From Schmidtea polychroa (taxonomy: Eukaryota), in the NCBI GenBank assembly GCA_044892525.1, contig CM097885.1, forward strand, positions 11,906,001 to 11,970,000: a stretch of 64,000 bases of DNA. The letters run 5' to 3'. The number at the start of each line of letters is the position of its first letter. Positions within the stretch are counted from its first letter, which is position 1. A program made the position numbers and the translations under genes. The notes under the pieces were generated by a model. It did not search any database and was not told the DNA's origin. It saw only the letters and a list, made by a program, of their open reading frames with translations. Below, one piece after another: positions 1 to 64,000 of this stretch.

Positions 1-101
1 TATTAGCCCCACAAAATTCAAATGCTTAATTTTATAAACGTTGTCCTTGGTGAGTAACAAGGCCGTCCTATCCAATATGCACACCAGGAACTGTGCTTAG
101 T

Positions 102-501: not shown

Positions 502-630
502 TGCTTAGTGCCTATATAATTCAAAAATAAGATATTGAAAAAGTAAATTAAGTAATTGAAAAATATAATGCTAACTTTGCGGATCTTTGCATATCTGCAT
601 AAATTATGATAAAGTTATATTTTTTCAAAA

Positions 631-762
631 TCACTTGACAATGGTAGTGCCGAAAATTCATGAAAAACATCGATATCTTTACTGATTCATAGTCAAATGT
701 TTTTAATAAATACAATGTCAATTGAAAAGAAATCAGTGGTGAAAACTGAAAAAAGTTCTTAT
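631..762 (+). repeat. Family A HHR-variant repeat, degenerate copy
   Basis: TCAC-TTGACAAT-GGTAGTGCC-GAAAATTC-ATGAA followed by the shared tail (ACATCGATAT...TACTGATTCATAGTCAA...AAATCAGTGGTGAAA...AAGTTCTTAT). Confidence 0.8.
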
Positions 763-996
763 AAATAAACTACTCGAATCTGTGTGCACACAATAATTTT
801 CCACACATCGAGTGGTTGAATTTTGATTGAATGAGTATATGGTGTCGAATTATCATTATTATTAAATTTTATCTGGATCCTTCGGATTGATTCCTCGTGT
901 CTTTTGTTTAATTTTGTGAAGTTTCGAATTCCTGTAATTCGAAAAATGTGTTTTTGATCGTTGGAGTTCAATTGTTTTGTGAATAATAATAATAAT

Positions 997-6945: not shown

Positions 6946-8831
6946 TTTTATTACATTTTATAAAAACTTTTCCTAGCAATAATTATAAAATTTAATTTTC
7001 ATCAATTCTCATAAAAACAACATTAAACAAATTATGAAACAAAATAAGTCAAAAGTTTTTGTCTTTGACAAAATCTCTGTCATTTCTGACAGATTGGATT
7101 ATTATTTATCATATGTTTAAGATATTTTTTGTAATTTTAATTTTTAAAATTAATAAATATTTATGTTTTTATTTTTACAATTTTTTGTTTTAATTCTTTT
7201 AAGATTAGGGATTGAGTTTAGGTCCGAAAATATACCTAATACAATGTCAATTGAAAAGAAATCAGTGATGAAATTTGAAAAAAGTTCTTTTATTACTAAT
7301 ACAAAAAGACATACGAAGTACAAACATTTTCTTTCTAAAAAATATTAATTAAAGTTATAAGCGTGAGTTAGTGTAAAGGAAAGAATGTAAACATTTTCAT
7401 TCAGGATTTTATATAAAATGGAAAACTTTAAAATTTTAAATGCTTCAGAAATGGAAGAGCCGATAGTTTGAAGGGGACATTTAACAAATGAACACAGATA
7501 TTGAAATAACAACCAATTATTCGTATCACTTCTTTACCATTGTTGAGGTTACACAAACATGCATAAAATAAATAAAAATGAAAATTCTTTGAAATTACCT
7601 ATATGATATATATGATATATATATATCCAATTAAATTAAAAATTAATATTTTTCTGGGGGGAGTGATTACCAGTGACAATTTAAAAGTTGAAGGCGATTA
7701 AAATAAATTTAAAATGATAAGAGGTTCCTAAGAGATGCTACAACGAAAAAAACAAATTAATTGATTTATTAATTAATGTAATTTATTATTCAAGAAAAAC
7801 CCACGAATCATTGAAAATATTCTTAGTTGACAAGTTGAATTGTTACATAAATTATTTTAGAGGGGATTGCTCTAGTAGTCCATCCCAATTATAAGTGAAA
7901 ACTACTGTGAAAGACTTGTGTTTTCTTTTGTTGGGTTTTTCTACTAAAAACGAAACGCGAGATTTTGGACAGATTTCTGCTGAAACTTTCTTAATATCAC
8001 AACACCATAAAGGACAAAAAATTCTATGATTTTTATCAAATTTAGCTTCTTTACATTGGATAAGTTATTGAAATGTGGATAAAGTAGGCACAATATACAC
8101 CCAGACAAATCTTAGGATAAAAATAAGTAAAAAATGAAATGGTCAATATCATGAAAAGGATTCAAGAATAAAGTTACCAATCTAGAAATAATGAATTCAA
8201 CAGTTGATATTAAGCTGGAAAAAATATCAAGGTTGTCTGAAAAGTAAGATTCAAATTTTGAACATAAAAAAGTAAGAGTTTGACTATAGGTATCAAAAAA
8301 GAGAAAATGGTCATTTTCCATTTAATAAAATAACTTTTCTATTTTATTAATTTTATTTTATTACAACATTATGAAATTAATGAACGAGGATTTAATTTTG
8401 TTTATTGAAATTACAAAATTACAAAATTACAAAATTAAATTTTATTCTGCATTTTGAGTTTGATTAAGATTATTTTGTTTGAATAATTTAAATGAAAAAT
8501 TGTCTTGAATTTTAAAAATAGAAATGAAAATAAATATGATTACCAAAATGAATAATGCAACAGTAAAAATGAATTAAATTTGTGATATTAATAATTTAAT
8601 TTATTTTCATTATGACAACAGATCAAAAATTTATTTTCTAAGAAACAGAAATTTTCATCACTGACCTTATCAAGTGTTATAACAGTTGATAAGGGGAGTG
8701 TCGAAAATGTGAAAATAAATGAGAAATAAAAACAGATAAAAGGTGAACAAAATAAAATTCATTTGCAAATAAAAAAGGGGAAATAATTTTGTAAGCCTGA
8801 AGCCGCATTTTTTACACAAATAATAACTATC

Positions 8832-8864
<33 letters not shown>

Positions 8865-8869
<5 letters not shown>

Positions 8870-9007
8870 TTGAAGACTACGAATCAGTAAATATATCGAT
8901 GTTTTTGATATACACGAATTTTCGGCAGTGCCTTTTTCAAGCGAATATCAAAAACATCGATATGTTTACTGATTCGTAGTCTTTAAGTTTTTTAATAAAT
9001 GCAATGA
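8865..9007 (-). repeat. Family A fold-back palindrome with HHR-variant core at ~8913-8944 (minus), between (TA)n tracts
   Basis: Arms GACTACGAATCAGTAAATATATCGATGTTTTTGATAT / ATATCAAAAACATCGATATGTTTACTGATTCGTAGTC enclose a core reading CGC-TTGAAAAA-GGCACTGCC-GAAAATTC-GTG on the minus strand. Confidence 0.85.
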
Positions 9008-10056
9008 AAAAGAAATATATATATATATATATATAATATATGATTTGTGGCACAGCTGAATCTGCTACATGCGGAGCTGTATGATAACAGTTTTTACAAT
9101 TTATACAATACAGCGAACAATACAATAAAATCTGATAAAATAGGTGAAATAAAATGTTATTAAATTTAAACATTTTACTAAAAAATAAATTAATTACCAT
9201 ATTAATAAGTTTGCAATTAATTACAAATTAAATATTAATAATTATCTAATTTATTTAATAATTACAATTTACAAAAATTATCATTTTTCTAATTCACAAT
9301 GCATTAAAAATTGTGAATTGGGAATTTAACAGCAATAAAAATGAATTTTATATGAAGAGAAATCTTCAAACGTCATAAAATAATAGAATATGCAATCGAA
9401 ATACAGTTAAAATCGGAGGAAAAAAGCAGAATTAAATGAGATATTTATGGGTAAAAGGTTTTAATCAATTTTTTTATGAAAGAAAGATTAAGAAATAAAA
9501 AATGAAAATAAATCTAAATTAGAGTGCAATTTATTTTATATAATAGGCTAAGGAGGAAATGTTATTGTAAACCGATTGTTTCCTTTTATTAAGAGTAAAG
9601 CTTTTAAATGCTTTAACATGATTCTATGAGATGTTATGAAATTTTAAAATTTACAATTTTGAACGTTTTATTCGTTTAAGTCTATAAATTATAATTTTTT
9701 GTAATATTTTGACAAACTGTTTTTTTTACATTTTTTGTACATTTAAAAAAATTAATTTTGATAATTTGTAAAATCTTATTTAAAATCGCATATGGATAAT
9801 AATTCCTCTGATAATATCTGTATTATAAATAGTCACTACAATTATAGGAAACACAAAACTTACTTGTGTGTTGAAAACTTTACTTGAGTAATTGTATTTT
9901 ATTATACGTGGTATAAAATCGAGTGTCTTTAAAATCTTTTAACTTATTCACCTCTGATATTTTATTTACGATAACTTTTAAATTAAAACACAAATATTAA
10001 AGGTTAAAATAAAGAAATTATAAAATAGGGTAAAAAATCATCAAAATATATTAATA

Positions 10057-14285: not shown

Positions 14286-14710
14286 ATTCTATTTTATAAA
14301 ATTCTATTTTGTTTTATTATACATAATATATCTCATTTATAAAAAATGTCATATTACATAAATATGAAATATATGTTTGATAAGAAAATCATTTGAAGTG
14401 TATATAAACTTATTTTGGACGAAGAACTTTATAAAATAAACCAAAACCTTTACATGAAGTGAAATCTTTATTTATTAAATAAATTAAGAGTAAAGAAATG
14501 CAATATTATTTTTAATGTGTAATGTTATTTTTTTGGTTTTTTCTATTTTTTACGCTTTTATATAGAATTCAGAAAATGATTGCATTTATCTACCACTTGA
14601 CATATTTTATTAAAACGTTAATTTTAAACAAAATGACCGACATGAGTATTGCACAATAATTTTGTTTAATTTTGACTGGAAAGGTAAAAATAAAATATAA
14701 AAAATAAGTA

Positions 14711-14905
14711 TTATAAAAACTTTATTCAAATTTCATTACTGATTTCTTTTTCATTGACATTGTATTTATTAAAAAGCTTGACTATGAATCAATAAATATA
14801 TCGATGTTTTTGAAATTCACTTGAAAAAGGCAGTGCCGAAAATTCGTGAATATCAAAAACATCGATATATTTACTGATTCATAGTCAAGCCTTTTTAATA
14901 AATAA
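14711..14905 (+). repeat. Family A fold-back palindrome capped by an intact HHR-variant core
   Basis: Left arm 14711-14820 is the reverse complement of the family tail starting GTGAA; right arm 14846-14905. Confidence 0.9.
14816..14850 (+). ncRNA. Minimal type-I hammerhead ribozyme variant (C3U/G8A core), family A
   Basis: TTCAC TTGAAAA A GGC AGT GCC GAAA AT TC GTGAA: stem I TTCAC/GTGAA, core UUGANAA plus extra A, stem II GGC/GCC, GAAA, palindromic AATT stem III, UC cleavage site. Matches the minimal variant HHRs known from Penelope-like LTRs. Confidence 0.65.
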
Positions 14906-15940
14906 AATATATTTCAATAACAACCATTTGTTTGTAAAAATCTCTCTTATCAAATCCATCTCGACAAGTCCGAATTTCAAGAAAAACGTTGACCAACTAC
15001 TGTCGGAATTCATTGATATAATTACTGATTTTTTTTACTAAGAAAAATTTAAACGTGAAAACTAACAATTTTGCCCCCAGTCGAAATAGACAATCAAAAT
15101 AAATCAAAGAACAAATACTAACAATTCATACAAATAAATTTAGCGAAATATTTCTTATAGTTTCAGATTTTCCCCCATTTTAAGCTGTTCGTAGGAAATT
15201 TTGGTTCGGTAACTCAAATGGAAATGGAGATTGTCAAATTTCCAATTCTCCACAAACCGTTCCCGCTTCAACGCTCAAGCGTACGACCCATCTCGAAGGA
15301 AAATAATTAAGTTATCAATCTAGTTTATTAATACAATTATGCATGGATTGATTGTGATATATTACAATTGAATTGATAACTGTGTCAATGTTTGACACGA
15401 TGAAATTGAAACCACAAATTAAAACAAAACGGATTTATCTGAATTTACTGAAATTCACCAACTAATTGTAATTCCAACTCTCGATAATTAATTAATTTCA
15501 GAAAGAAAAACTTCATTAACATTTATTATTTTTCCACTCTGATTAAAACAACTCTGCATGTTTGTGTGGATTCAAAGATAAGACCATTTTTATCATTAAT
15601 AAAATGCTTCACTGACAGAATTCAGCGGAGATTTATTTTTGGATGGGGGCAGGCGAATTATAATGTTGATATTTGTCTTTTTAGATTTTGAAATTTGGTT
15701 TTGATTCACAATATTCCATAATTGGTTTTAATTAGATTTCATTTGGAAAAATCACTCTGGAGCAATGGAGCAAGATGTGGAATAGCAGATAGATAATTAT
15801 TACAACAAAAAGAAAAAAAAACTTAATCAATTTCTTAAATTTAACTGAAAAAATAATTTTTAAAGAATTTATTTTATTTTAATAAAAATTATTTCATATT
15901 TAATAAAATATTTGAAATTATTTAAAAAAAAATTATTATT

Positions 15941-16148
15941 GTAAGAACTAATTTCAAATTTCACCACTGATTTCTTTTCAATTAACATTGTATTTATTAA
16001 AAGGCTTGACTATGAATCAGATGAATATCCATGTTTTTTTTGATATTCATAAATTTTCGGCACTGCCTTTTTCAAGTGACTTTGTGAATATAAAAAATAA
16101 ACATCGATATTTTTACTGTTTCATAGTCAAACTTTTTAATAAATACAA
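15941..16148 (-). repeat. Family A fold-back palindrome, HHR core on minus strand at ~16046-16079
   Basis: Full minus copy 15941-16079, 4-nt filler CTTT, then a plus arm starting GTGAATAT at 16084. Confidence 0.85.
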
Positions 16149-17742
16149 GGAAAACAATTATTATTATTACCCAACTCATTTTTCACATGTTCGTTTTTAA
16201 ACGAATTATTACACGGTCTATGAAAAAGCCGTCTTCCTTATTTGTATGTTTTATTTAGTCTTACACAATCAAGCTTTATTATATTCATTTTTACACAGTT
16301 CTTTAAATTAAATATTGTTTTCGATTTCATATTATACGGTTTTTCGATAATTTAGAACGTATTCTTCCTTTTAATATAAATAATGTTTATTTTTCACACG
16401 CATTTCTGAGGAACATATCTACCATGTAAACAAAGAGATTGGTGTATTTATGTCCAGTAAATGAAATCCGAATTAATAAAACAAAAAAGTTTTGATTTAT
16501 GGTGATGAGTCATAATAATGTTTTTATAATATTGGATTAATTATGTCAAAATTAAATTAATTAAATTAATTAATTAAATTTTATTAGTTAGATATTTGAA
16601 ATAAATCTTATTATTCATTGAGTCTTATTGTATAAAAATATAGTGCTAAATAATACATTGTGATTGAGTTTAATATATTTGTTTTTAACAACGATTTCAT
16701 TATTTTATTAAAATTTACTTCGACTTAATTGTAAATTTGGTAAGTACTTTTTAGTTCGCCGATTTCCGTTCAATTGTTTTCTCCAGTAAGTCTATGATTT
16801 TAAAATGAGAATTGTATTGTTTAAATAATTGACGCAAATTTCGTAATGTTATGTTTTAATTTTAATTTTAATTTAATTTTTTTTGTAATAAAATTTCAAA
16901 CTAAATATTCTTTTTTTTATGTGTTTTTTCATTTATATTTATACACCTTTTATATACTTATATTTTAATGAAGTGAGTCATTTTGAATACTTTTAAGTAA
17001 CTTTTAAACGTTTAGCCAGGTTATCACTTGGAATTATTCGTTCTTTAGCATGTCAATGAAATATATAGAACATACAAGCTCTATCTTTATAAAACTCATT
17101 TTATTAAAACTTCTATATAAAGTGTCAAAACAATAAAATGTTAGATTACTAAAAAGTTCCAAAATCAAATATAATGAAATGTGTTTACATATTTATTTAT
17201 ATAGATATATTATATTATAAAACACTAAAAAGTACTATATAAAAAATAAAAGTATTAAAAAAACACTTTTTTAAATAAACAGAAGAAACAAAAAACGCAC
17301 ATTCGAAATAAAAAGTAACATGAAGATAAATAGAGATAAAGCACAGCAATAAAATTTATACCAATAATTCAGAAACAACTTTTCATCCGGAACCCGTATC
17401 GCAGTCAAATCATTATTACCATCAGATAAAATTCAGATCGCGACATCACAATTTTATACTCAGTAAATTTTTAATGTTATTAATTATAATGTATTTCATA
17501 GTTATAAAAAAATTATTTAAATTAATTATTAAAAATATTTACATTTGTTTAAATAATTATATTTAAAACACAAAATTTAAAAAAAGAGAAAGTTTCAATC
17601 AGAAAGATCATTAAATTTTAATAAATAACAATTAATAATCATTTTGTAATTAGCATAATAAGTCATTTGATATGAGTTCAACATTTAGTTTTCTTCAATA
17701 CTGTTAAAATTATTATTTTGTAGAGGCTACTTTGTAATACAC

Positions 17743-20388: not shown

Positions 20389-22898
20389 TTCTATAATATA
20401 AGAAAACAGATCAAAAACGTTATAATATAGAAACACACCTGCTCACTTTGATGTTATTCTTTGTGTTAGAAGAAGACATAGTTTCACAGAAATCTTTATT
20501 CACTTCAAAAATCTAAACGGAACACACAATCGTTATACTATTTATAGTACATTGAATTGCGTAATCTACAAAAGGGAGAATTATTAGTTTAAGTGATACT
20601 GTTGACACAGAAGACAAACATACTTACTTAATTTAGTTATACTTAGCATTCCCGCATCATTCAATAGATATCAAGGTCTAGTGACCTGGTTATGTAAGTA
20701 ATTCTTTGGAAATTATTATATCATCTTACACTTTGCAAGTGCAATGAGATACAATCTACAATACACAATTTGAAAAATTGATAGAAAAATTAAATACTGC
20801 ACACAAATATATGTACACTTTGAGGCAATGAAATACACACCTATAATAAATTTGTTATGAACAATACTTAAAAACAACATATGGCAGGAAAATTGAGTTT
20901 CCGTAAAAAAGGAGATCATCTAAAGATATATTTTAAAGTTAAAATTATTTTAATATTTCCTTAGCATTTCAGACATTTCTCTCAAGACTCATTTCGCAAA
21001 TGTAATTTAATAATTCCATAGATTTTCAGATATTGCTGGACTTTTACCGTTGGTAATAATTTTACGTTGGTAATACCGAAACAAATAAAATAAATAAGTT
21101 TCTGAAAATGTAGAAAGTTTTATAATAAAACGACTGACAAATTATTCATCAAATTATTTCAAATTTACTCACCAACTTGTAGTACAAAATGTGTATTTCA
21201 GTAGAGTTTGGTGTATAATAAATATAGCAAAATCCACTTCATTATCCGTATGTTTTCACTACCATTATTGAAGGTATTTTGTCAGACACATCTTACATCT
21301 GCTGTGACCATGCATGACCACCTTGACAATCTATGTATATTTGTATTATTCTTTAATATATGAATATATTATTATTTTAATAAAATTAATCAATTATTTT
21401 ACTTTGGCTTTTAGGGTAACCTGATTAGTTTGGCAATAATAGTCTTAATGAATTTCTCGTCGTCAAAACTTGACTGAATGGCATTTTAATTATTCAAAAT
21501 ATTTGATTCATTATTTGAATTTATTCCAAAAATTAACGCCATATTATCAGTTAATTTTTAATATTATTTATGAACAGGTCTAACACAAATAGTTGATGAA
21601 TGTTTCCAGACGATCTGGCCAACAGATATTGGGGAAATATTTTCTATTAGATAATATCATAATTGCAATACTTTTTAATTAAATTACTTTTACAATATGA
21701 AATCAGTCTGGTCAAATCTTTGAAAATTACTTTGAATTTTCCAAAAAAAATATTATTAATAAAAGTAAAATTGTTTTTAAAACTTGAAATTTAATATCTG
21801 CAATAATTATTACAAATTAATATATTTAATATAAAATATATCTAGAACGAATTTTGTCTCTAAATCCATTGAACCATAAACAATAACATTTATCGCTGGA
21901 ATTATATTGAAGTAGTAAAGAAAACGTTAAAAATCATTGTACAACATTACATCATCAATTTCTGTTACTTTTATACAAATTGCTCTTCTTTGATCCACGT
22001 GGGACACATTTTGCCATTATTTTCATTGCTATTTTTATTATCGATTGCCCTTATTCTATAGCGGTTGGTCCACTTTGATTCAAATCCTAAATCCTTTTGA
22101 TATCGAATCATAAACCTTGCCATTCCATAGAGTTATACCAGTTATCCCACGAGACCACATTTGAATTTCATAAAACATTGCTATAAAAAAGTCTGAGAAA
22201 TTATTGTTTTAAATTTTTAAATGTTATTTAAATTTAAATTCAGATTTAAATTAAAGATTTATAAATTTAAAATTTATTATTGATTTAAATATTTTAATTT
22301 AAATTTCAAAATTTTCAAGCATTGTATCGAAATTAAAATTTCGGACATTTATTAATTTCGATTTCAATATTATTATAATTTAAAATAAAATTACCTCAAA
22401 ATTCTAGAATTCTTTCGACATTAAAAACTAAATTTTCTTAAACTTAATCCAATATTCTTTACAAAGACCAAATAACAAGTTATAACAAGTTTTTATAAAA
22501 TATATGTTAAATAATTCAAAATCTGGTAAATTCTAAAATCTATTTTATAACATAATAGTTCAAGTATTTATTTATTTAGGATCGATAATGAACATAAAAT
22601 ATGAAACATGTTTAAGACATACAATAACATAAACACACGCATCAAACTATTTACGATAATTTTAATTAGGTAATTTAATTTAGATTATTTATAATATACA
22701 AACAAAATTTAAGAACATCCATTAAAATAATAATTCATTTGTTTAAATGATAAAGAAATTGTAATTTTTATTTTTTAAAATGTTTTTAAAATGATTTTTG
22801 TTACATAACTTATTATTATATATATATATATATCAAAATTAGACCCTAAATAATTTGTTTAATTCTCTTCTTTGAACTGTGAAGAAAACAAATGATAA

Positions 22899-23515
22899 TT
22901 AAATAAACATACTACCTACTTTGCAAGATTTTGAAACAATTCTATGATTCAATGTACCCAGCTGTTTACTAATCTTTCTCTTGAAATCTTTATATTCTTC
23001 AGAATACGGCAATACAATCGTATATTTTGGCTCATCTGGTTTGTTAGTATCAATACTCATATTCACTACATCATTCGACATACCAGTCAATTTACATTCA
23101 TTCATATTACGATCCCTAGCATTATTCCTACATTTATCAACAGTCTCTTTCAACGTTAACAATAAAACCGTTTTGAGTAGCCATTCTTCACCAGTAATTC
23201 AACTAATTTATCTACACTTTTTACTGAATTTTTAAAAGTGGAAGATAAGCACCATGATCGATAAACCAATCCTTTCACCATGTTTCTTTTATATTTAAAT
23301 TCACAAAAACTCTCTGGGGTAGTATAGAGGCCGGTATCTGTTGGTTTTCTGTAAATATCTGTCTCATATTGTTCATCTTTACGTTTAATTAACAAGTCAA
23401 GAAATGCTATGTATGAATCCTTCTCAGTTTCACATGTAAATTTAATGTTCTTATGCAAACCATTCATGTAATGCAAAAAAGGTTTCACATGTTCCTTATT
23501 TCTAAATATCAGAAA
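22899..23515 (-). mobile_element. Penelope-like retroelement ORF fragment (RT C-terminus, thumb, linker)
   Basis: MNGLHKNIKFTCETEKDSYIAFLDLLIKR...TDIYRKPTDTGLY...YKRNMVKGLVYRSW...LLVKNGY then IVLPY; characteristic PLE RT motifs, frameshifted. Confidence 0.9.
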
Positions 23516-23649
23516 AATCTTGAAAACCTTTGAAAATCGTAAAAAATTATAAAATTTCTGTGAAAAACCCTTGAAAATCTTAAAAAATTATAAAAAATTA
23601 TAAAAAATTATAAATTTTTGAGTTGACCTACAAAATTAAAAATTTTTTG

Positions 23650-23900
23650 AATAATGCTAAGGAAATAAATGTAAATTGACTGATATGTCGAATGATGTAG
23701 TGAATATGAGTATTGATACTAACAAACAAGATGAGCCAAAATATACGATGGTATTGCCGTATTCTGAAGGATATAAAGATTTCAAAAGAAAGATTGGTAA
23801 ACAGCTGGGTACATTGAATTATAGAATTGTTTCAAAATCTTGCAAAGTACGTAGCATGTTTGTTAGTAAATCTCAAACACCGGTTGGATTGTGTTCGGAT
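23650..23900 (+). mobile_element. Inverted duplicate of the Penelope linker region
   Basis: Near-identical reverse complement of ~22900-23130 (DMSNDVVNMSIDTNKQDEPKYTMVLPYSEGYKDFKRKI...), extending further to KSQTPVGLCSD. Confidence 0.9.
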
Positions 23901-28373: not shown

Positions 28374-28764
<391 letters not shown>

Positions 28765-29096
28765 CCATTAAAAGTTAGAAATGCTAAAGGTTTACGGATG
28801 AACTTGTAAACAGTTTCTGTGTATGACGGTGTCTCCAGAGGCGAATATGATTTTTCCTACGCCATGTTTACAAGTTTGCAGATATTTGTTCCTGTGATTT
28901 TGCGAATTTGTAAGTGATGTAATTTCCAGTGTAACAGGGAAAGTATGTAATAGAGTTGAATCAGCAATATTGTATACTTACCTGGCTCGAAGAGAAATCT
29001 TCGCGTCTCCTGCATAGTACTGATGAAAGCCAAAAGCTCGAAACTAGTCCACTATTGAGATTTGTACTGGGTATCACAAAGCTTGTAATATTTATC

Positions 29097-29099
<3 letters not shown>
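28765..29099 (+). mobile_element. Second family B copy (putative Penelope 3' end / pLTR) ending in (TTA)n
   Basis: 28928-29099 is collinear with the minus copy at 28520-28697; the upstream part has an extra hairpin AACTTGTAAACA/TGTTTACAAGTT. Confidence 0.8.
29014..29055 (+). ncRNA. Hammerhead ribozyme, family B, slightly degenerate
   Basis: ATAGTA CTGATGA AAGC CAAAA GCTC GAAA CTAG TC CACTAT; core intact, mismatches at the first pair of stem II and of stem I. Confidence 0.85.
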
Positions 29100-29174
<75 letters not shown>

Positions 29175-32012: not shown

Positions 32013-32472
32013 ATGTAGACGAATGTCTTCTTGATATAATATTTATTTAAGGTTAGTTTTTGTCATTTTATTCCAGAAGCTCATATTATACAAAATGTCT
32101 TAGAGGAATTTCTTTAAACTAAAACTTAGAAAATAATTAAAAGAAAATATTTTTTTTAATTTTAAATTTCCAAAACAACGTACACAGCAGCTCTAAAATA
32201 TATGATATCGTATAAATTTGATTTGTTTTAAATACTCAATGATAAATGTCTTAATTTTTGTCTTAAATTTTGTATCTATATATTTGGTTAATTAATTTAT
32301 TAATTAGTTTGTACTTTTAAAATTACACATGGGGTCCCTATCAATTAAAAATAAAACTGCACTATTGTTTTAATTCTTTACACATTTACATACATCTATC
32401 ATTTATTATTATATTTATTATTAATTTGAAAAATATTATGTAGAATGTCATAATTAAATATTATATTAAAAT

Positions 32473-32545
32473 TTGACTATGAATAAGTAAATTTATCGAT
32501 GTCTTTTTATATTCAGGCATTTTCGGCACTGCTTTTTTCAAGTGA
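32473..32545 (-). repeat. Family A HHR-variant repeat, partial
   Basis: Plus-strand TTTTCGGCACTGCTTTTTTCAAGTGAA preceded by the reverse-complement tail (TTGACTATGAATAAGTAAATTTATCGATG). Confidence 0.8.
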
Positions 32546-32798
32546 AAAAAAATTCTTATAATATTAAAATATATTACAATTAATGTTGAAAAATCTAATT
32601 TTCGTTACAAAATTCAGGAATCTTGAAAATAGATCACCTGTTATTATACAAAAACAAATAAATAAAAAAACATTGTAATATTTATTAATATTATTTAACT
32701 AAAAAGTCATGTCTAATTTTAACTATGATTTTCTTAATAAGGTGTTTTGGAACTTTATGATTTTACATGTAGTTTCCTGTAAATCTATGAAGAATACA

Positions 32799-36950: not shown

Positions 36951-37060
36951 ATATTTATAAAAAGCTTGATATCGATATATATAATGATTCATAGTCATGC
37001 TCTTTAATAAATAAAATGTCAATGGACATCAGTGGTGAAATTTGAAAATAAGATTCTTAT
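36951..37060 (+). repeat. Family A tail, core deleted
   Basis: ATCGATATAT..TGATTCATAGTCA..TTTAATAAATAAAATGTCAAT..ATCAGTGGTGAAATTTGAAA..TTCTTAT; another tail fragment at 7238-7290. Confidence 0.7.
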
Positions 37061-37914
37061 GATAGTAAAATTAATAGTTTATATTATTTTCTTTTCAAGA
37101 AATTAAGGAAAAAAAGAGATTTGCAACTAGATATATCTAATGGTGTTTCGGAATATGTAAAAAAGGTTTTAAAAAGGTTTTCTGATAAATATAAAACAGT
37201 GATTTGAAGTCATAACAACTTAAGATTTGAGAAATTGTAAAAAGATACAGTCAATTAATATTTTTGGCGTCATTATTAAAACTATTCATGTCGTTTGAAA
37301 AACATAATTCTTAATAAAAATTTTAATTTTTAAAATTTATTAATGTTTCCATATTAACGCGACTGTTAAATTTGCTATTGTAACAATTATATTCATTCTT
37401 CACTTTACACAGTAGCTTTGTTCCCATAAGTTGGTATATCTATTTCATATATCGAAATTACGTAAGTTGAATACTTCTAAAATATTTTGCAATAGTCAAA
37501 ATGTAGTTTGTCCTCAGTAATAGCATCATTTAACTTTTAAATGGATCTTAAAAAGAAATTTGAAGTCTGTTACCTGATTTATATTTTTCCGATAGAATTA
37601 TTTGTAGTAGTAGCAGTCTATTGCCCAAATTACAAACGATTGTGGTGGTTTATTCTGACTACTCGCGTTTGTGTGCGCACATATATTTCATTTTTTACAG
37701 ACTTGAGCATTGTATGTGTGTCGAATAAACCTTTTTTTGTTTTGGAACTTTGAGATCGATTTAATTATTCTCGAAGAAAATTTCTGGAATTTGATTGATT
37801 ATGTTTTGATTTATGCTTTGTAATTTGAAAATGCAAAAAAGGATTTTGTTTGATTCTTTCTTGTTGAAATTCATTTGTTTTTGAAAGTTTATTATTCACA
37901 TATTCAAAGTGCTT

Positions 37915-43859: not shown

Positions 43860-44190
43860 GTAAGATTATTTTAAATAAAAAACAACATAAAATTTATTAT
43901 TAAATAAAAAATGGGAATTAATTTCATTTCTTGGAAATGTTTTTACAGAGAATTCATTTTCATACTCCAATGCTTCAATGGGATAATAAATAAAAATTCC
44001 AAACTGGCAATAGAAGTCTTTTCATAAACTCTTGATTTGTTGACAATTTATAAGGAGTATAAAATAAAAATAATGAACTTTTCATAGAATTTTTTAAATA
44101 ATTATAAATTCTTTAATTCACAATTTATTGCAAAAACCATTCAATAAAATACATAATTAATTAATTAAATAATTAATAATACAATAATAC

Positions 44191-44335
44191 TTATAACAAC
44201 TTTTTTCAAATTTAACCACTGATTTCTTTGCAATTAAAATTGTATTTATTAAATAGCTGGACTATAAATTAGTAAATATATCAAAAAAACTTCGATATCT
44301 TTTACTCAAGGTTTTTAATAAATACAATGACAATA
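44191..44335. repeat. Family A palindrome with core deleted
   Basis: Reverse-complement tail (ACCACTGATTTCTTTG..TTGTATTTATTAAA..GACTATAAATTAGTAAATAT) joined to forward tail (ATATCAAAAAAACTTCGATATC..TTTTAATAAATACAATG). Confidence 0.7.
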
Positions 44336-44957
44336 ATAATTATTATTATAATTCAATAATTTTACATATTAATTTTTATAAATCAAAACAATAGATAAGC
44401 TACACGATAAGGTCTTACAAACATTAATATGAAAATTATTGAATTTAAAAAATGATCAAAAGTGAAACCAAAAGTTAAATTTAATATTTATTATAATAAT
44501 AATATACAATTCAATAAAGATTCCAAACTCAGTAATTATATCATTTGAAAATATTTCCCGATAATATTATAAGCGGTCTAATTAACAATATATGGAAATA
44601 GGTGTACAAATGTGTCGAATTGTAAGATTTAAATAATTTTTACGTTTAATAACACATTTTCTATAGTGTAAAAAGAAATGAAAACAAATGAATTTCAAAT
44701 TAAAATAGATAAATGACGAAATGAATAGTTTTCACCGAAAATATTTTTCAACAATAATATGGGAACAAAGCATGGAATGATAATAATTGTTCTAAATAAT
44801 AAACAAACATTGCACAAAAGGTATTATTTTGTTTAAAATTACATAATTGTATTTCAGTTTTGATTTATTGTTAGGAATTATTTTCAATAAATATTTTACA
44901 GTAATATTTATTTATTAATTTTAACTAAATCTTTATTAAATTGAATAAATTAAAAAA

Positions 44958-45102
44958 TTCACTTGAAAAAGGCATTGCCGAAAATTTGTGTGCATCAACA
45001 AACATCGATATATTACTGATTTATAGTCTTCAAGCTCTCTTTTTAATAAATTCAATGGAAAAAATAATCAGTGGTAAAATTGGAAGAAAATAAGTTCTTA
45101 TA
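44958..45102 (+). repeat. Family A HHR-variant repeat, full unit
   Basis: TTCAC TTGAAAAA GGCATTGCC GAAAATTT GTG plus the whole tail to AAGTTCTTATAAT. Confidence 0.85.
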
Positions 45103-47049
45103 ATAAATATTTTATATATAGCCACAAAAATGGAACGATTTTATACGAATTAATAAAAATAAAACTTGAGTACAATTACGAGGACTCATCTTTTTAAAAA
45201 TTAAAAATCGGAAAACATCCTATAAAACAATAAAAAACCAAAAATGAAAATTCCATTTTAAAATCTGCAAAATATTCTAAGAAACATTATTTGTTGATTT
45301 GTTTGTTTGTTGAAATAGAAATTAAACTTTAAATTATTTAAATAATAAATGAGAAGGAGAAGAAGGAGAAAGTTCTTATTATGTAATAGGAAAAGAAAAA
45401 ACATTAAAAAAAATTTAAATCCTCAAAGGTTTGGTTATTATATTTCTATCAACTTTTATATTATGTTTAAGCTTATTTTTCACCAAATATATTTGGAAAT
45501 TACACCAACAGCGACCAAAACTAACATGTGGTTTAAGAAATAACGAGAGAAGTATATCATAGTGTTCCCCATTATTTTTACAATACTCGATAAATGTCCT
45601 CGGCATTTCATCCAAATTAAGTCTACAGTAAGCAATAAATTTAAAATAAAATCACTGCTAAAAAGTTAATTAAAGAAAATTAGGGACTGCTATAATATTC
45701 ATTGGAAAACACAAATACAGATAAAAATTACAGATTGCTAAGATTGCTGACACTAATTACAATGAAATATATCAAAATTCTTTTCATTTAAAATTTAATT
45801 GAATCCCACGGTAATTCTGTATGTCTTTCACGTATGGTTTTACATAACGAATTTTATTTTGCTATTAATCATATTATGTCATAAATAATTCATGCCATTT
45901 TTACAAAAGCAAGATATAACAATAATTTTGAGAAAGCAGCAGTTGTCTAGAAACCACTTTCTCTTGTATTTTCATTTGAAATTGTTCATACAGAATATAT
46001 TTAGAATCAAAATAAACATAGCATATAAATCCATTTAGTAAAACAAAAAAAACAGATAAAATATAACAAAAAATATACAGTTAAATTTTGACTAATAAAA
46101 GACAAAATAAAGGTAACATGAGAAAAAAATAAAGTTTAGTATTAAACTGAAACTAAATTGTAAAATTTTGTTTTAGTCATTCGACAACCAAAAACCATTT
46201 GATTCTATTTAATCACTTACCCCCATTGGATGACAGGACAAACTTTAATTGTGTTTAATTCTATTTAGTCACATGAATGACATAAATTTTTTTATATGAC
46301 TACGTTGTAAGATACTAAATGTTTTAATTTAAAATAAAATTAATAATAAAAACTTAATTTTGCTTATTTTGTTTAAATTAATAAACAATATTATTTTTGT
46401 TATTATAAGATAATTAATAAATGATACAATACGCCTTGTGGTAGCTTGCCTACTATATTTTGCCTTGCATATTGATTATGCATTTGATATTTTTTATTAA
46501 TAAATTTTTGACCCCTTTATGTGGCATGAAAACAAAAATGAAAATTGTCAACAATAGACGACAAGTTTTATTTTAGTTTTTTTAACGGTTGGTTGGTGTT
46601 CACTTTTATATGGGGTCTTTTAAAACGCCAATTACTTTCTTAAATTTTGCAAGAGAAAATGATTGGTTTACTGTATTATTTACTGAGAACATTTTTCTAA
46701 ATGAAGGAATTCACTGAAGTAAATCATGCATAGTCTTCTAAGTTGGATATAACATAGTCCTTTATTGTGACTCATTTATTACTTTTACACTATTATTTTT
46801 GACAGAATCCTATTGTATTATTAAAAAATCTTAAACTAAAATAGTCTGTTTGTTATATTCATGGACCTCAATTGGAAAAATGTTCAAGATCACTGCTAAA
46901 ATAATTTATATTTTTTAATTTATCATTTTTAATTTTTAACAGATGTTTCAAACAGCCAGACAATTCTAAATATCCTAAATATAGTATCAAGTGATGATTG
47001 CTTGGTAGCAGCATTAATTAAATTTAAAATCAATTAAATGAAAATTTAA

Positions 47050-50400: not shown

Positions 50401-50924
50401 TCCTAAGATAAGTTAGGTTTTGAAAAATTATGAATTTGACCTCCTATTCCAAAAAAGAGCTGAGTTTTAAACTGATAAAGTGAAATTAATATGTTTAGCA
50501 CTATTGTTGCAGGAATTTTAAATGATATAGATAAAGAAGTTACGAAAAATGAATAAAAGTTTACTATAAATAATAAAATATTCGAGCAAGCTTTTTCGTG
50601 TCTGAAAATAAATAAGTCAAAATCGATGGTGACTGACTGCAATTTAAAAGCAGTATTGCGAATCACAATCAGTAAACTAGTTCCACAGTTCAAAAACATT
50701 ATCCAAAATTATGAGCAGACACACGCGTTTCATTGATTGTAATTGTACACTGTTCAGATTGTATGTAAATAAATTTCCGTCTTTTTTATAATTATGATAT
50801 GATTGGTAATAATAAATGTTTTTAAATAACTAATAATATGAAAATCTTATTATCAAATTAAGAACTTTTTCAAATTGTATAGTAAAATGTGATGTAGTGT
50901 AAAATATAAGTAAAGTAGATAAAA

Positions 50925-51179
50925 TTATTATAAGAACTTTAATTTCTTCCAATTTCACCACTGATTATTTTATCTATTGAATTAAAAAGAGAGTTTGAAA
51001 ATTATAAATCAGTAATATATCGATGTTTGTTGATATTCACGAATTTTCGGCACTGCCTTTTTCAAGTGAATTGTCGCTTGAAAAAGGCAGTGCCAAAAAT
51101 TCGTGAGTATCAACAAACATCGATATATTACTGATTTATAGTCTTCAAACTCTCTTTTTAATTCAAAGTAGATAAAATA
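50925..51179. repeat. Family A head-to-head pair with two HHR-variant cores
   Basis: Minus core 51036-51070 (intact) and plus core 51074-51106 (G12 to A), each followed outward by the tail. Confidence 0.9.
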
Positions 51180-62564: not shown

Positions 62565-64000
62565 CAGGGATGGCAAATAGGTTTTTATCAAAGTGCCAAA
62601 ATAAACTAAATTTAAATTCAATTTTTTTCGCGTGCCCTCGTAACTTTTATTTGTTATATGTACCTATATATATATTTTTTATTCATTTTTTTATTCATAT
62701 TTTTATTCACAAGAAAACAGAAATAAATTTCAATATTTGAGTTCATGTGATAATATTTATTCAATATAAAGAAATAGTAAAAAAAATTATAAAGTTTAAT
62801 AATAAATTTAATAAAAAATTCTTAAATTTTGTTAGAAGTTTTTTGCTTCATATTACTTGCAAGGTTTTTAATATCAGGATGGTATGTTGTCGATTGTAAG
62901 GTAATACAAGCTGCTGAGTCTTCTTCTGTTAATCTGTTTCTTGTCTTTGATAGTACATGATTAAGTACAGAAAAAAGACTCTCACAGTAATAAGTGGATG
63001 CGAAAATGGTTAACATTGCGATTGCTAATTTTTTTACAGAAGCAAATGCTTCTGGCATACTATTCCACACTTCCAATATCAAGTTTTCAATGCGGCATTC
63101 CGACTCTCCATCCTGTGACAATCGATGATATTCCAATTCTTCTATATTTTTTCGCATATTCACAAATTTTTGTGTCCAAATAGGATTAGATTGCAAATCT
63201 ACTGTCTGCATTTCTAAATTTTCTAATTTCATCCAATTAATAAGGTTGTTATCGAAATCCTGTATATCGAATAAGTCCGGATAATTTACAATTTTCAACA
63301 GCCTATCAATTCTTTTAAAATCTTTAAATCGATTTGAAAATTGTTCTTTTATAGTTTCAAGAACTTTAGAAAATTCGTAATTAAAATTCCAATTAGTTTT
63401 TTTGAAAATTGTAGATTCATTTAAAAAACTTTTAAGTTTCGGAAAATTATTATGTTTTCCAGATGCGATATCTCTAGCAAAAATATCTAATTTAATTTCA
63501 AACCCCTTTATCAATCCAAACATAACTTCAATTGTTTTTCCTCGTCCTTGCAATTTTTTATTAAGAACGTTTAAATGTAATGTTACGTCGGTAAAAAACA
63601 TTAATTTTGTTAACCATTCTGTATCATATAATTCTTTAAAACGATCCCTGTCGAATTCGTGTAAAAAAAGTCGAATTTCTTCCAAGCAATTCACAAATCG
63701 TTCTAAGGATGTCGCTCGACTTAGCCAACGTACACTATTGCACATTAAGAGAGTATCGTATTCGCAATCCATATCATTTAAAAGTTTTTTAAATTGTCTT
63801 TTATGCATGTCGCGTGCAACTACAAAATTTATGATTTTATTAACTTGTTCTGATATTTCTTTGAAATCGCTAGTTCCGAATTTTGCACAAAGAACTTGCT
63901 GATGAATAATGCAATGAAAGCCTATTATTGGATGACCAACTAGGTTTTGAAATAAATTAACAAAACCTATCTCTGGTCCAGTCATATTAGGAGCTCCATC
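62565..64000 (-). mobile_element. hAT (Buster/SPIN-type) transposon, 3' part; continues beyond window
   Basis: TIR CAGGGATGGCAAATAGG at 62565 preceded by CTCTAGGG (central-TA target); contains the open transposase frame. Confidence 0.9.
62822..64000 (-). CDS. hAT DDE transposase (GTF2IRD2/SPIN-like), 5'-partial
   Basis: Uninterrupted frame with DGAPNMTG (second catalytic D), HCIIHQ (CxxH), VRWLS, LNKKLQG and FASTYYCESLFS (catalytic E). Confidence 0.95.
   Translation of the reverse strand, partial: DGAPNMTGPEIGFVNLFQNLVGHPIIGFHCIIHQQVLCAKFGTSDFKEISEQVNKIINFVVARDMHKRQFKKLLNDMDCEYDTLLMCNSVRWLSRATSLERFVNCLEEIRLFLHEFDRDRFKELYDTEWLTKLMFFTDVTLHLNVLNKKLQGRGKTIEVMFGLIKGFEIKLDIFARDIASGKHNNFPKLKSFLNESTIFKKTNWNFNYEFSKVLETIKEQFSNRFKDFKRIDRLLKIVNYPDLFDIQDFDNNLINWMKLENLEMQTVDLQSNPIWTQKFVNMRKNIEELEYHRLSQDGESECRIENLILEVWNSMPEAFASVKKLAIAMLTIFASTYYCESLFSVLNHVLSKTRNRLTEEDSAACITLQSTTYHPDIKNLASNMKQKTSNKI

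Follow-up and report, generated by a model that had tools for sequence, protein, structure and literature searches.

The question raised by this locus is whether the junctions of head-to-head repeats record the cleavage of a hammerhead RNA in vivo. The window analysed, a 64,000-nt stretch of Schmidtea polychroa (GCA_044892525.1, contig CM097885.1, positions 11,906,001 to 11,970,000), contains a family of short repeats, here called family A, that carries a hammerhead-like motif. The initial annotation had proposed that one arm of its fold-backs begins precisely at GTGAA, the first nucleotides after the predicted cut, and that a cDNA of the cleaved 3′ product had switched template to form the inverted pLTRs typical of Penelope insertions. 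Our analysis pointed to a Penelope-like family with a modest mechanistic lead, and a cleavage footprint was not demonstrated in the window.

The window has a GC content of 23.8% and contains no N. BLAST with the named loci as queries showed ten family A loci in the window, comprising three monomers with a core, one tail-only piece and six head-to-head structures (8865, 14711, 15941, 36956, 44183 and 50925). Positions within the unit were counted from the predicted cut, with G14846 as +1, and negative positions were counted back from the first core base. The monomers, placed by core alignment together with BLAST or contigs, lie at 626..764 (locus 615, + strand, core 635-659 and tail), 32459..32546 (− strand, core 32541-32517, short 3′ end) and 44955..45105 (locus 44946, + strand, core 44963-44987 and tail); the last served as the contig reference. 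The tail-only fragment (7238..7297, + strand, BLAST) runs from +55 onward. The core was kept in all three monomers possessing a 5′ end, none of which starts at +1. Pairs of units in the window lie head to head, with no head-to-tail tandem among them, and an ORF check found no ORF adjoining family A in the window. The tail starts at an ATG near +61 that stays open for 16–17 codons at 615 and 15941 (715-768 and equivalents), as would be expected if this were the start of a lost ORF. At the 5′ edge (44952-44962), the flank ends in ATC and is followed by AAATTCAC, which may mark a transcription start. The TCACT in stem I of family A is identical to an Inr-like sequence described in the pLTR of a rotifer (PMC3846280; this and the other papers cited were available in part).

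The core at 14821..14845 (+ strand), defined by RNA folding and a descriptor, is a minimal type I hammerhead-like motif with a predicted cut at 14845/14846. It shows U3-A8, one extra nucleotide after A9, G10.1-C11.1 and a palindromic 15.2-16.2. The fold has a 6-bp stem I, a 3-bp stem II with a 3-nt loop and unpaired core boxes. Helix I closes at the cut with 6 bp in both the descriptor and the RNA fold (at least 4 bp being the threshold), and helix II, with 3 bp, is shorter than the 4–8 bp range. The descriptor, composed after the motif had been seen, gave 3 matches in the window and 0 in each of 100 Markov-simulated windows. The hammerhead-like core of the initial annotation is supported. The descriptor was passed by two of the eight family A cores in the window (14821-14845 and 51065-51041). 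C17 is the majority base, with 82%, 80% and 63% of the summed depth in X1, X3 and X2. U3-A8, the unpaired nucleotide between 9 and 10.1, G10.1-C11.1 and the palindromic 15.2-16.2 are all known from minimal hammerheads of metazoan Penelope-like elements, which are described as weak cutters in vitro that fail as monomers (PMC4209133, partial text). The family A core is thus a probable hammerhead motif whose activity is predicted only.

Several searches for the motif gave negative results. No Rfam model, hammerheads included, reached its gathering score in the window, and the 18 matches obtained for 14600-16300 at E up to 10 included no hammerhead. The Rfam matches at 14774-14892 were rejected as generic miRNA hairpins far below their gathering scores. 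Compensatory stem changes were absent among the eight window cores, and the contig data on this point give single positions only. The exact 22-nt core had no match in the viral contigs searched. Two metagenome contigs matched it and were dismissed as chance, being loci of 50–53% GC with similarity confined to the motif.

The fold-back hairpins described in the initial annotation proved real. Outward from stem I, around the 25-nt core, 43 of 45 positions pair at 14711 and 41 of 45 at 8865. Alignment at 14711 showed a long inverted arm (14711..14812, − strand) with the body from +9 to about +110, including a tail of ~50 nt (about 14711-14760). It is followed by the native 5′ flank and the 5′ strand of stem I (14813..14820, + strand; alignment and contigs), in which A14814 differs from an arm copy. 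Beyond the core lies the short core-bearing arm without tail (14846..14899, + strand, +1 to about +54..60; alignment). The 9 nt ahead of the core read GAAATTCAC, and an arm copy from the cut predicts GATATTCAC. The native flank is AAA before TTCAC at 615, at 44946 and at the loose end before 44955 in the contigs. A14814 matches this flank, so the arm at 14711 starts at +8/+9 with no mutation assumed. The same base is compatible with a cleaved partner in a join of two cDNAs followed by heteroduplex repair.

The locus 8865 (8866..9014, − strand; alignment) is a single-core fold-back with its core at 8940-8916 and both ends in (TA)n. Its junction can be placed anywhere in +1..+7, since stem I serves as arm and flank alike, and its tip reads as an arm copy would. 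The tip (8941-8945) and the right unit of the 50925 dimer (51074-51077) have in common an A-to-G change on the 5′ side of stem I as well as membership of a subfamily with a 3-nt insertion. These common traits are a weak hint that the 8865 tip derived from a native 5′ strand. A small head-to-head pair (8649-8710) lies 200 bp from this fold-back and carries a diverged U3-A8 core-like motif with 6 mismatches to the family A core.

The locus 15941 (15941..16155, − strand; alignment) has one core (16075-16051) and an inverted arm from about 16084. Next to the core, the original stem I strand and flank are still present apart from one substitution, and core and arm are separated by 8 extra nt (16076-16083). 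The arm start is ambiguous between about −5 and +2, as TTT at 16081-16083 is either flank, with the arm from +1, or core end, with the arm crossing the cut. The locus can be read as a +1 arm joined to an intact 5′ end. Three further head-to-head junctions, outside the earlier claim, were found, and no single strand was assigned to them. The locus 50925 (50926..51164; alignment) is a dimer with two cores (51065-51041 and 51078-51102). The locus 44183 (44190..44329; alignment) is core-less, with arms from +19 and +5 and a 5-nt microhomology (44278-44282), and can be read as a cleaved-product cDNA with a 4-nt trim. The locus 36956 (36956..37062; BLAST and alignment) is core-less, with a short arm from +40 and a long, tailed arm from +16. 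The native flank is retained at three of the four core-bearing fold-backs (14711, 15941 and 50925).

A start exactly at GTGAA therefore holds in part: 8865 and 15941 permit +1 (two of six junctions), whereas 14711 starts at +8/+9 if no mutation is invoked, and 15941 is in a different register. No junction of the six requires +1, and the claim that junction position records cleavage in vivo was not supported. In a type I hammerhead, the scissile bond marks where the 3′ strand of stem I starts; whatever its origin, a join made in stem I will therefore map to the cut. What stood is stem I as a sequence through which some junctions form. The template switch onto an uncleaved RNA copy fails as written, since its polarity is wrong; after TTCAC, the new strand has the RNA sense, and the template must therefore be a minus strand, either a second cDNA or antisense RNA.

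The preference for stem I was examined by scoring and folding. For a run-off cDNA of uncleaved RNA, ends at −8, −6 and −5 scored highest with stem I and the end at −7 scored highest with the tail, so that stem I won in three of four cases by our own simple score. As DNA, stem I is weak (−3.6 kcal/mol, z −1.0). The partition-function fold of the cDNA end gave 0.12–0.15 for stem I vs 0.31 for the tail site, so stem I is not singled out.

Contigs from 4 of 15 public runs were aligned to a 261-bp stretch around the 44946 monomer. In three DNA-like runs, the stretch was matched by 7,272 (X1), 7,899 (X3) and 18,891 (X2) contigs; their depth gives no copy number, and family A is very abundant. Summed depth in X1 fell from 500,860 (44954-62) to 5,953 (44945-53), with 48 in the far flank, so the 5′ boundary of family A is sharp and lies upstream of the core. 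The best-supported loose end among the rows listed lies before 44955, at −8 of the core (119, 121 and 124 contigs in X1, X3 and X2). At the loose ends before 44994 and 45000, the consensus letters continue back across the cut into the core. The short 3′ end is seen again in a loose end behind 45052 (76, 54 and 71 contigs in X1, X3 and X2). One contig shows a 44-nt step back over the core.

Among the 15 joints listed, of 18 from thousands of contigs, six switch strand. Their inverted arms start at +29, +29, +43, +61, +103 and +19/+68, and none starts at the cut. Allowing for subfamily indels, the joint at +43 corresponds to the +40 junction of 36956. These starts depend on our reading of direction, with rows lacking a strand left out. 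The sample is small and biased, as near-identical hairpin tips collapse, and a sizeable +1 class is still compatible with it. At 44987, 44991 and 44993 the reference copy deviates from the family, so that any class starting at +1 is blurred, and six "skip" joints starting at 44984-44990 were left out of the cut-site events because of this deviation. Arm boundaries scattered genome-wide had been named beforehand as evidence against a footprint. This was borne out in part: other junctions fall between +16 and +40 in the window and between +19 and +103 among the joints listed.

The run X8, presumed to be RNA, gave 20 aligned contigs, two of which span the predicted cut, and some of which end in A-runs. 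It was set aside as transcript evidence, as contigs cannot show ends and DNA of an abundant repeat could explain them. The A-runs come shortly after AATAAA (45038-45090) and could reflect polyadenylation near the short 3′ end or A-rich priming.

The anatomy of the insertions showed two recurrent 3′ ends. Long arms stop near +110 and short arms near +55..63, and five of the six fold-backs pair a long arm with a short one, leaving a tail of about 50 nt at one end only. At 8865 both sides end in (TA)n. An inverted, 5′-truncated head-to-head copy is present at six of the ten family A loci. The more 5′-truncated, inverted arm extends further 3′ at three of the six fold-backs (14711, 44183 and 8865) and does not at 15941, 36956 and 50925. 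A strand copying itself cannot outrun its template, so two independently primed cDNAs or later core loss from a dimer fit better than snap-back.

Target duplications enclose the whole structure at four of the six fold-backs. They measure 14 bp at 50925 (50912-50925 / 51165-51178), 10 bp at 15941 (15931-15940 / 16156-16165) and 9 bp at 44183 (44181-44189 / 44330-44338). The 12-bp candidate at 14711 (14688..14699 / 14900-14911, + strand) is less certain, being set back some 10 nt from the left end. The chance of duplications of 14, 12, 10 and 9 bp in random AT-rich window pairs was 0.002, 0.008, 0.058 and 0.147. No duplication longer than 7 bp was found at 36956 or at the two monomers tested. 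The targets are AT-rich, with 8865 sitting in (TA)n. The monomers, the tail-only piece, the one-sided tails and the variable 9–14 bp duplications fit retrotransposition. Inverted copies, a one-sided tail and duplications are the published Penelope pattern (PMC3846280, PMC8557442, PMC2377424), and the Penelope-like context assumed at the outset was supported.

Two other structures in the window are also inverted. The first represents another family, whose minimal hammerhead core is canonical (28514-29111; cores 28604-28575 on the − strand and 29020-29049 on the + strand). It has the classic inverted plus partially tandem arrangement, lies between (TTA)n tracts and is tailed at the left arm alone. 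The inverted arm begins 121 nt ahead of the cut and the forward copy 4–7 nt ahead of it, with a 3-nt microhomology, that is, inside the palindromic stem III and with bases 5′ of the scissile bond included. The second is a head-to-head retroelement fragment with an RT C-terminal region on the minus strand (22893-23875), in which the downstream linker is copied in inverted orientation, a 10-nt tandem filler occupies the junction and both 3′ ends fall within the ORF; the hammerhead descriptor had no match in it. Its RT fragment (23159-23497), which is not linked to family A, had one relative among 64 longer candidates (PF00078, 78% identity), and its Atlas neighbours were eukaryotic PF26215 clusters at 0.98. 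We take this fragment to be Penelope-type from its motifs. Elsewhere in the window, the C-terminal part of a hAT-type transposase (62822-64000; PF05699, E 1.4e-7) and a Dymeclin-like stretch (1093-1452; PF09742, E 2.3e-7) were observed.

Junctions at the cut had also been offered as the general mechanism of inverted pLTRs. This was not upheld, as two other inverted insertions in the window have junctions off the cut. In the literature, Naiads form inverted pLTRs without canonical hammerheads (PMC8557442, available portion). For PAc, the accessible part of PMC11167929 reports that catalytic mutants left insertion in vitro unaffected, and that no RNA-seq reads begin or end at the cut.

As the best reading, we propose that the inverted repeats arose from two cDNAs made from both target nicks on uncleaved RNA and annealed at short complements, among which stem I scores best. 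We give this reading a probability of about 0.48, and in it family A, a high-copy element of ~120 nt, is a short, non-autonomous Penelope-like element consisting of a solo pLTR and a tail. The RNA template would mostly begin 8–11 nt upstream of the core and would be uncleaved. Each target nick would prime one cDNA, one from the tail end (about +110) and one from an inner start (about +55..63), and both minus-strand cDNAs would extend toward the 5′ end. Their 3′ ends would then meet at a short complement and join head to head, with overhangs trimmed. As stem I would be the best complement for a full-length cDNA, some junctions would fall in stem I and resemble starts at the cut.

The structures, junction positions, tails, duplications and dominant listed 5′ end are observed, and from these we infer two cDNAs, their annealing and trimming, and a mobilising enzyme. 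The scheme borrows from PAc, a Penelope protein that is described as cutting and extending both strands in vitro, with a tail defined by two RT start sites and with a dispensable hammerhead (PMC11167929, in part). Counting against the two-cDNA reading are the total of six junctions, the small and biased set of contig joints, the weak stem I, the competing tail site, the lack of an autonomous partner linked to family A, the readings of 14711, 15941 and 44183 that admit a cDNA of cleaved RNA, and the fact that tip deletion yields the same products.

Tip deletion, which we hold to be rather unlikely, is the strongest of the alternatives. Here, two-core dimers are the primary insertion, and one core is later lost by DNA deletion between tip repeats, with no cleavage. 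A two-core dimer with a target duplication does occur in the window (50925), and long palindromes are unstable. Deletion between an 8-nt near-repeat yields 14711 without mutation, and deletion between cut-spanning repeats yields 15941. Either core could be lost, which would make arm lengths random. The initial annotation had named this process as a refuting alternative, and it explains the stem I cases equally well. However, the 50925 dimer persisted until its arms diverged, and the contig joints at +29 to +103 would need one-sided deletions of many sizes. Tip deletion also accounts for the tip only, and not for the origin of the dimer.

A second alternative, the model of the initial annotation with its polarity corrected, keeps the annealing of two cDNAs and makes one of them a product of cleaved RNA: a cDNA ending in TTCAC would pair with another cDNA, made on uncleaved RNA, at the latter's stem I end, so that a substantial share of stem I junctions would record cleavage. 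The permissive junctions (8865 and 15941), the heteroduplex reading of 14711, the 4-nt trim at 44183 and the majority C17 in X1, X3 and X2 are in its favour, yet we consider it unlikely. A start at +1 is required by none of the six window junctions, none of the three monomers with a 5′ end begins there, and none of the six listed opposite-strand joints lies at the cut. The forward copy of the canonical-core family (28523-29101) begins before the cut, and stem II is merely 3 bp in family A. The poor cutting of minimal hammerheads, absent as monomers, in PMC4209133, and the lack of RNA-seq read ends at the PAc cut in PMC11167929 (both partial texts), also speak against it.

Intramolecular self-priming, in which a single minus strand, be it cDNA or antisense RNA, folds at stem I and extends on itself, is more doubtful still. 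The tip of 14711 is the exact product of an 8-nt fold-back with one mismatch, and by eye the arms of one locus have common subfamily features at 8865, 14711, 15941 and 50925. Self-priming at the palindromes of Penelope inverted junctions has been proposed (PMC3846280, in the part available). Against this, a copied arm cannot exceed its template, yet it extends further 3′ at 14711, 44183 and 8865, and the recurrent short end would have to come from subsequent trimming of the first strand.

It is very improbable that the motif is no ribozyme and family A a MITE-like DNA fold-back, or that the hairpins are assembly artefacts: the missing Rfam hammerhead match (in the window at gathering score and in 14600-16300 at E up to 10), the absent compensatory changes among eight cores and the two of eight cores passing the descriptor favour this, but the monomers, tail-only piece, one-sided tails and 9–14 bp duplications fit retrotransposition, the arms bear separate substitutions, the four odd core features match published Penelope hammerheads (PMC4209133, partial text), and the canonical-core family is likewise far below the Rfam gathering score (21 bits vs 52).

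What hammerheads do in Penelope-like elements, and how the inverted repeats of these elements arise, are called open questions in the available parts of PMC8557442, PMC11167929, PMC4209133 and PMC3846280. Were the inverted repeats formed by stem I pairing of two cDNAs with a measurable share from self-cleaved RNA, of which 15941 and 44183 would be examples, the motif would be kept because the ribozyme supplies the end that joins cDNAs. The thousands of copies would then be a fossil record of cleavage in vivo, readable in one junction histogram. We regard this as improbable. The arms on which core and tail sit across copies would tell two-cDNA joining apart from self-priming and from tip deletion. 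Family A is a good test bed: its copies number in the thousands, its flank has a diagnostic base, and its units have a sharp 5′ end and two fixed 3′ ends.

Family A was compared with known systems. LINE-1 twin priming uses two primers from two target nicks and leaves an inversion junction with microhomology, but it inverts sequence without duplicating it. Family A differs in that the inverted part duplicates the forward part. Short pLTR-derived hammerhead elements are already known (bioRxiv 10.64898/2026.07.22.740005, PMC7229834, PMC6765202; partial texts). In the literature searched, to which the Lunse et al. paper and the Evgen'ev and Arkhipova reviews did not belong, we found no statement of stem I as a joining sequence or of junctions at the cut. 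The non-LTR retrozymes (PMC7229834; bioRxiv 10.64898/2026.07.22.740005; available portions) resemble family A in being short, non-coding and pLTR-related, with a type I hammerhead and many monomers. They are defined by head-to-tail tandem units, whereas family A pairs head to head and shows no tandem in the window.

Cercyon of Schistosoma mansoni (PMC4209133, in part) is like family A in U3-A8, the extra nucleotide, G10.1-C11.1, the palindromic 15.2-16.2 and the short helix I. Helix II is 3 bp in family A, against a reported 6–8 bp. Dual hammerhead motifs on opposite strands have been reported (PMC4209133, same portion). PAc Poseidon of Anolis carolinensis (PMC11167929, in part) is comparable in that its tail is set by two RT start sites, each target strand is cut and then extended, targets are AT-rich and hammerhead activity is dispensable. 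PAc is autonomous, unlike family A, and the available text does not account for inverted junctions.

The Pen2 and Pen3a elements of Adineta vaga (PMC3846280; PMC8557442; partial texts) are like family A in the head-to-head, inverted, 5′-truncated copy and the tail at one end. Their duplications are 8–10 bp, and the junction palindrome was read as self-priming on the antisense strand (PMC3846280). Family A differs from Pen2 and Pen3a in having no ORF between the repeats, a tail of about 50 nt instead of 30–40, a junction complement that is hammerhead stem I, and a very high copy number.
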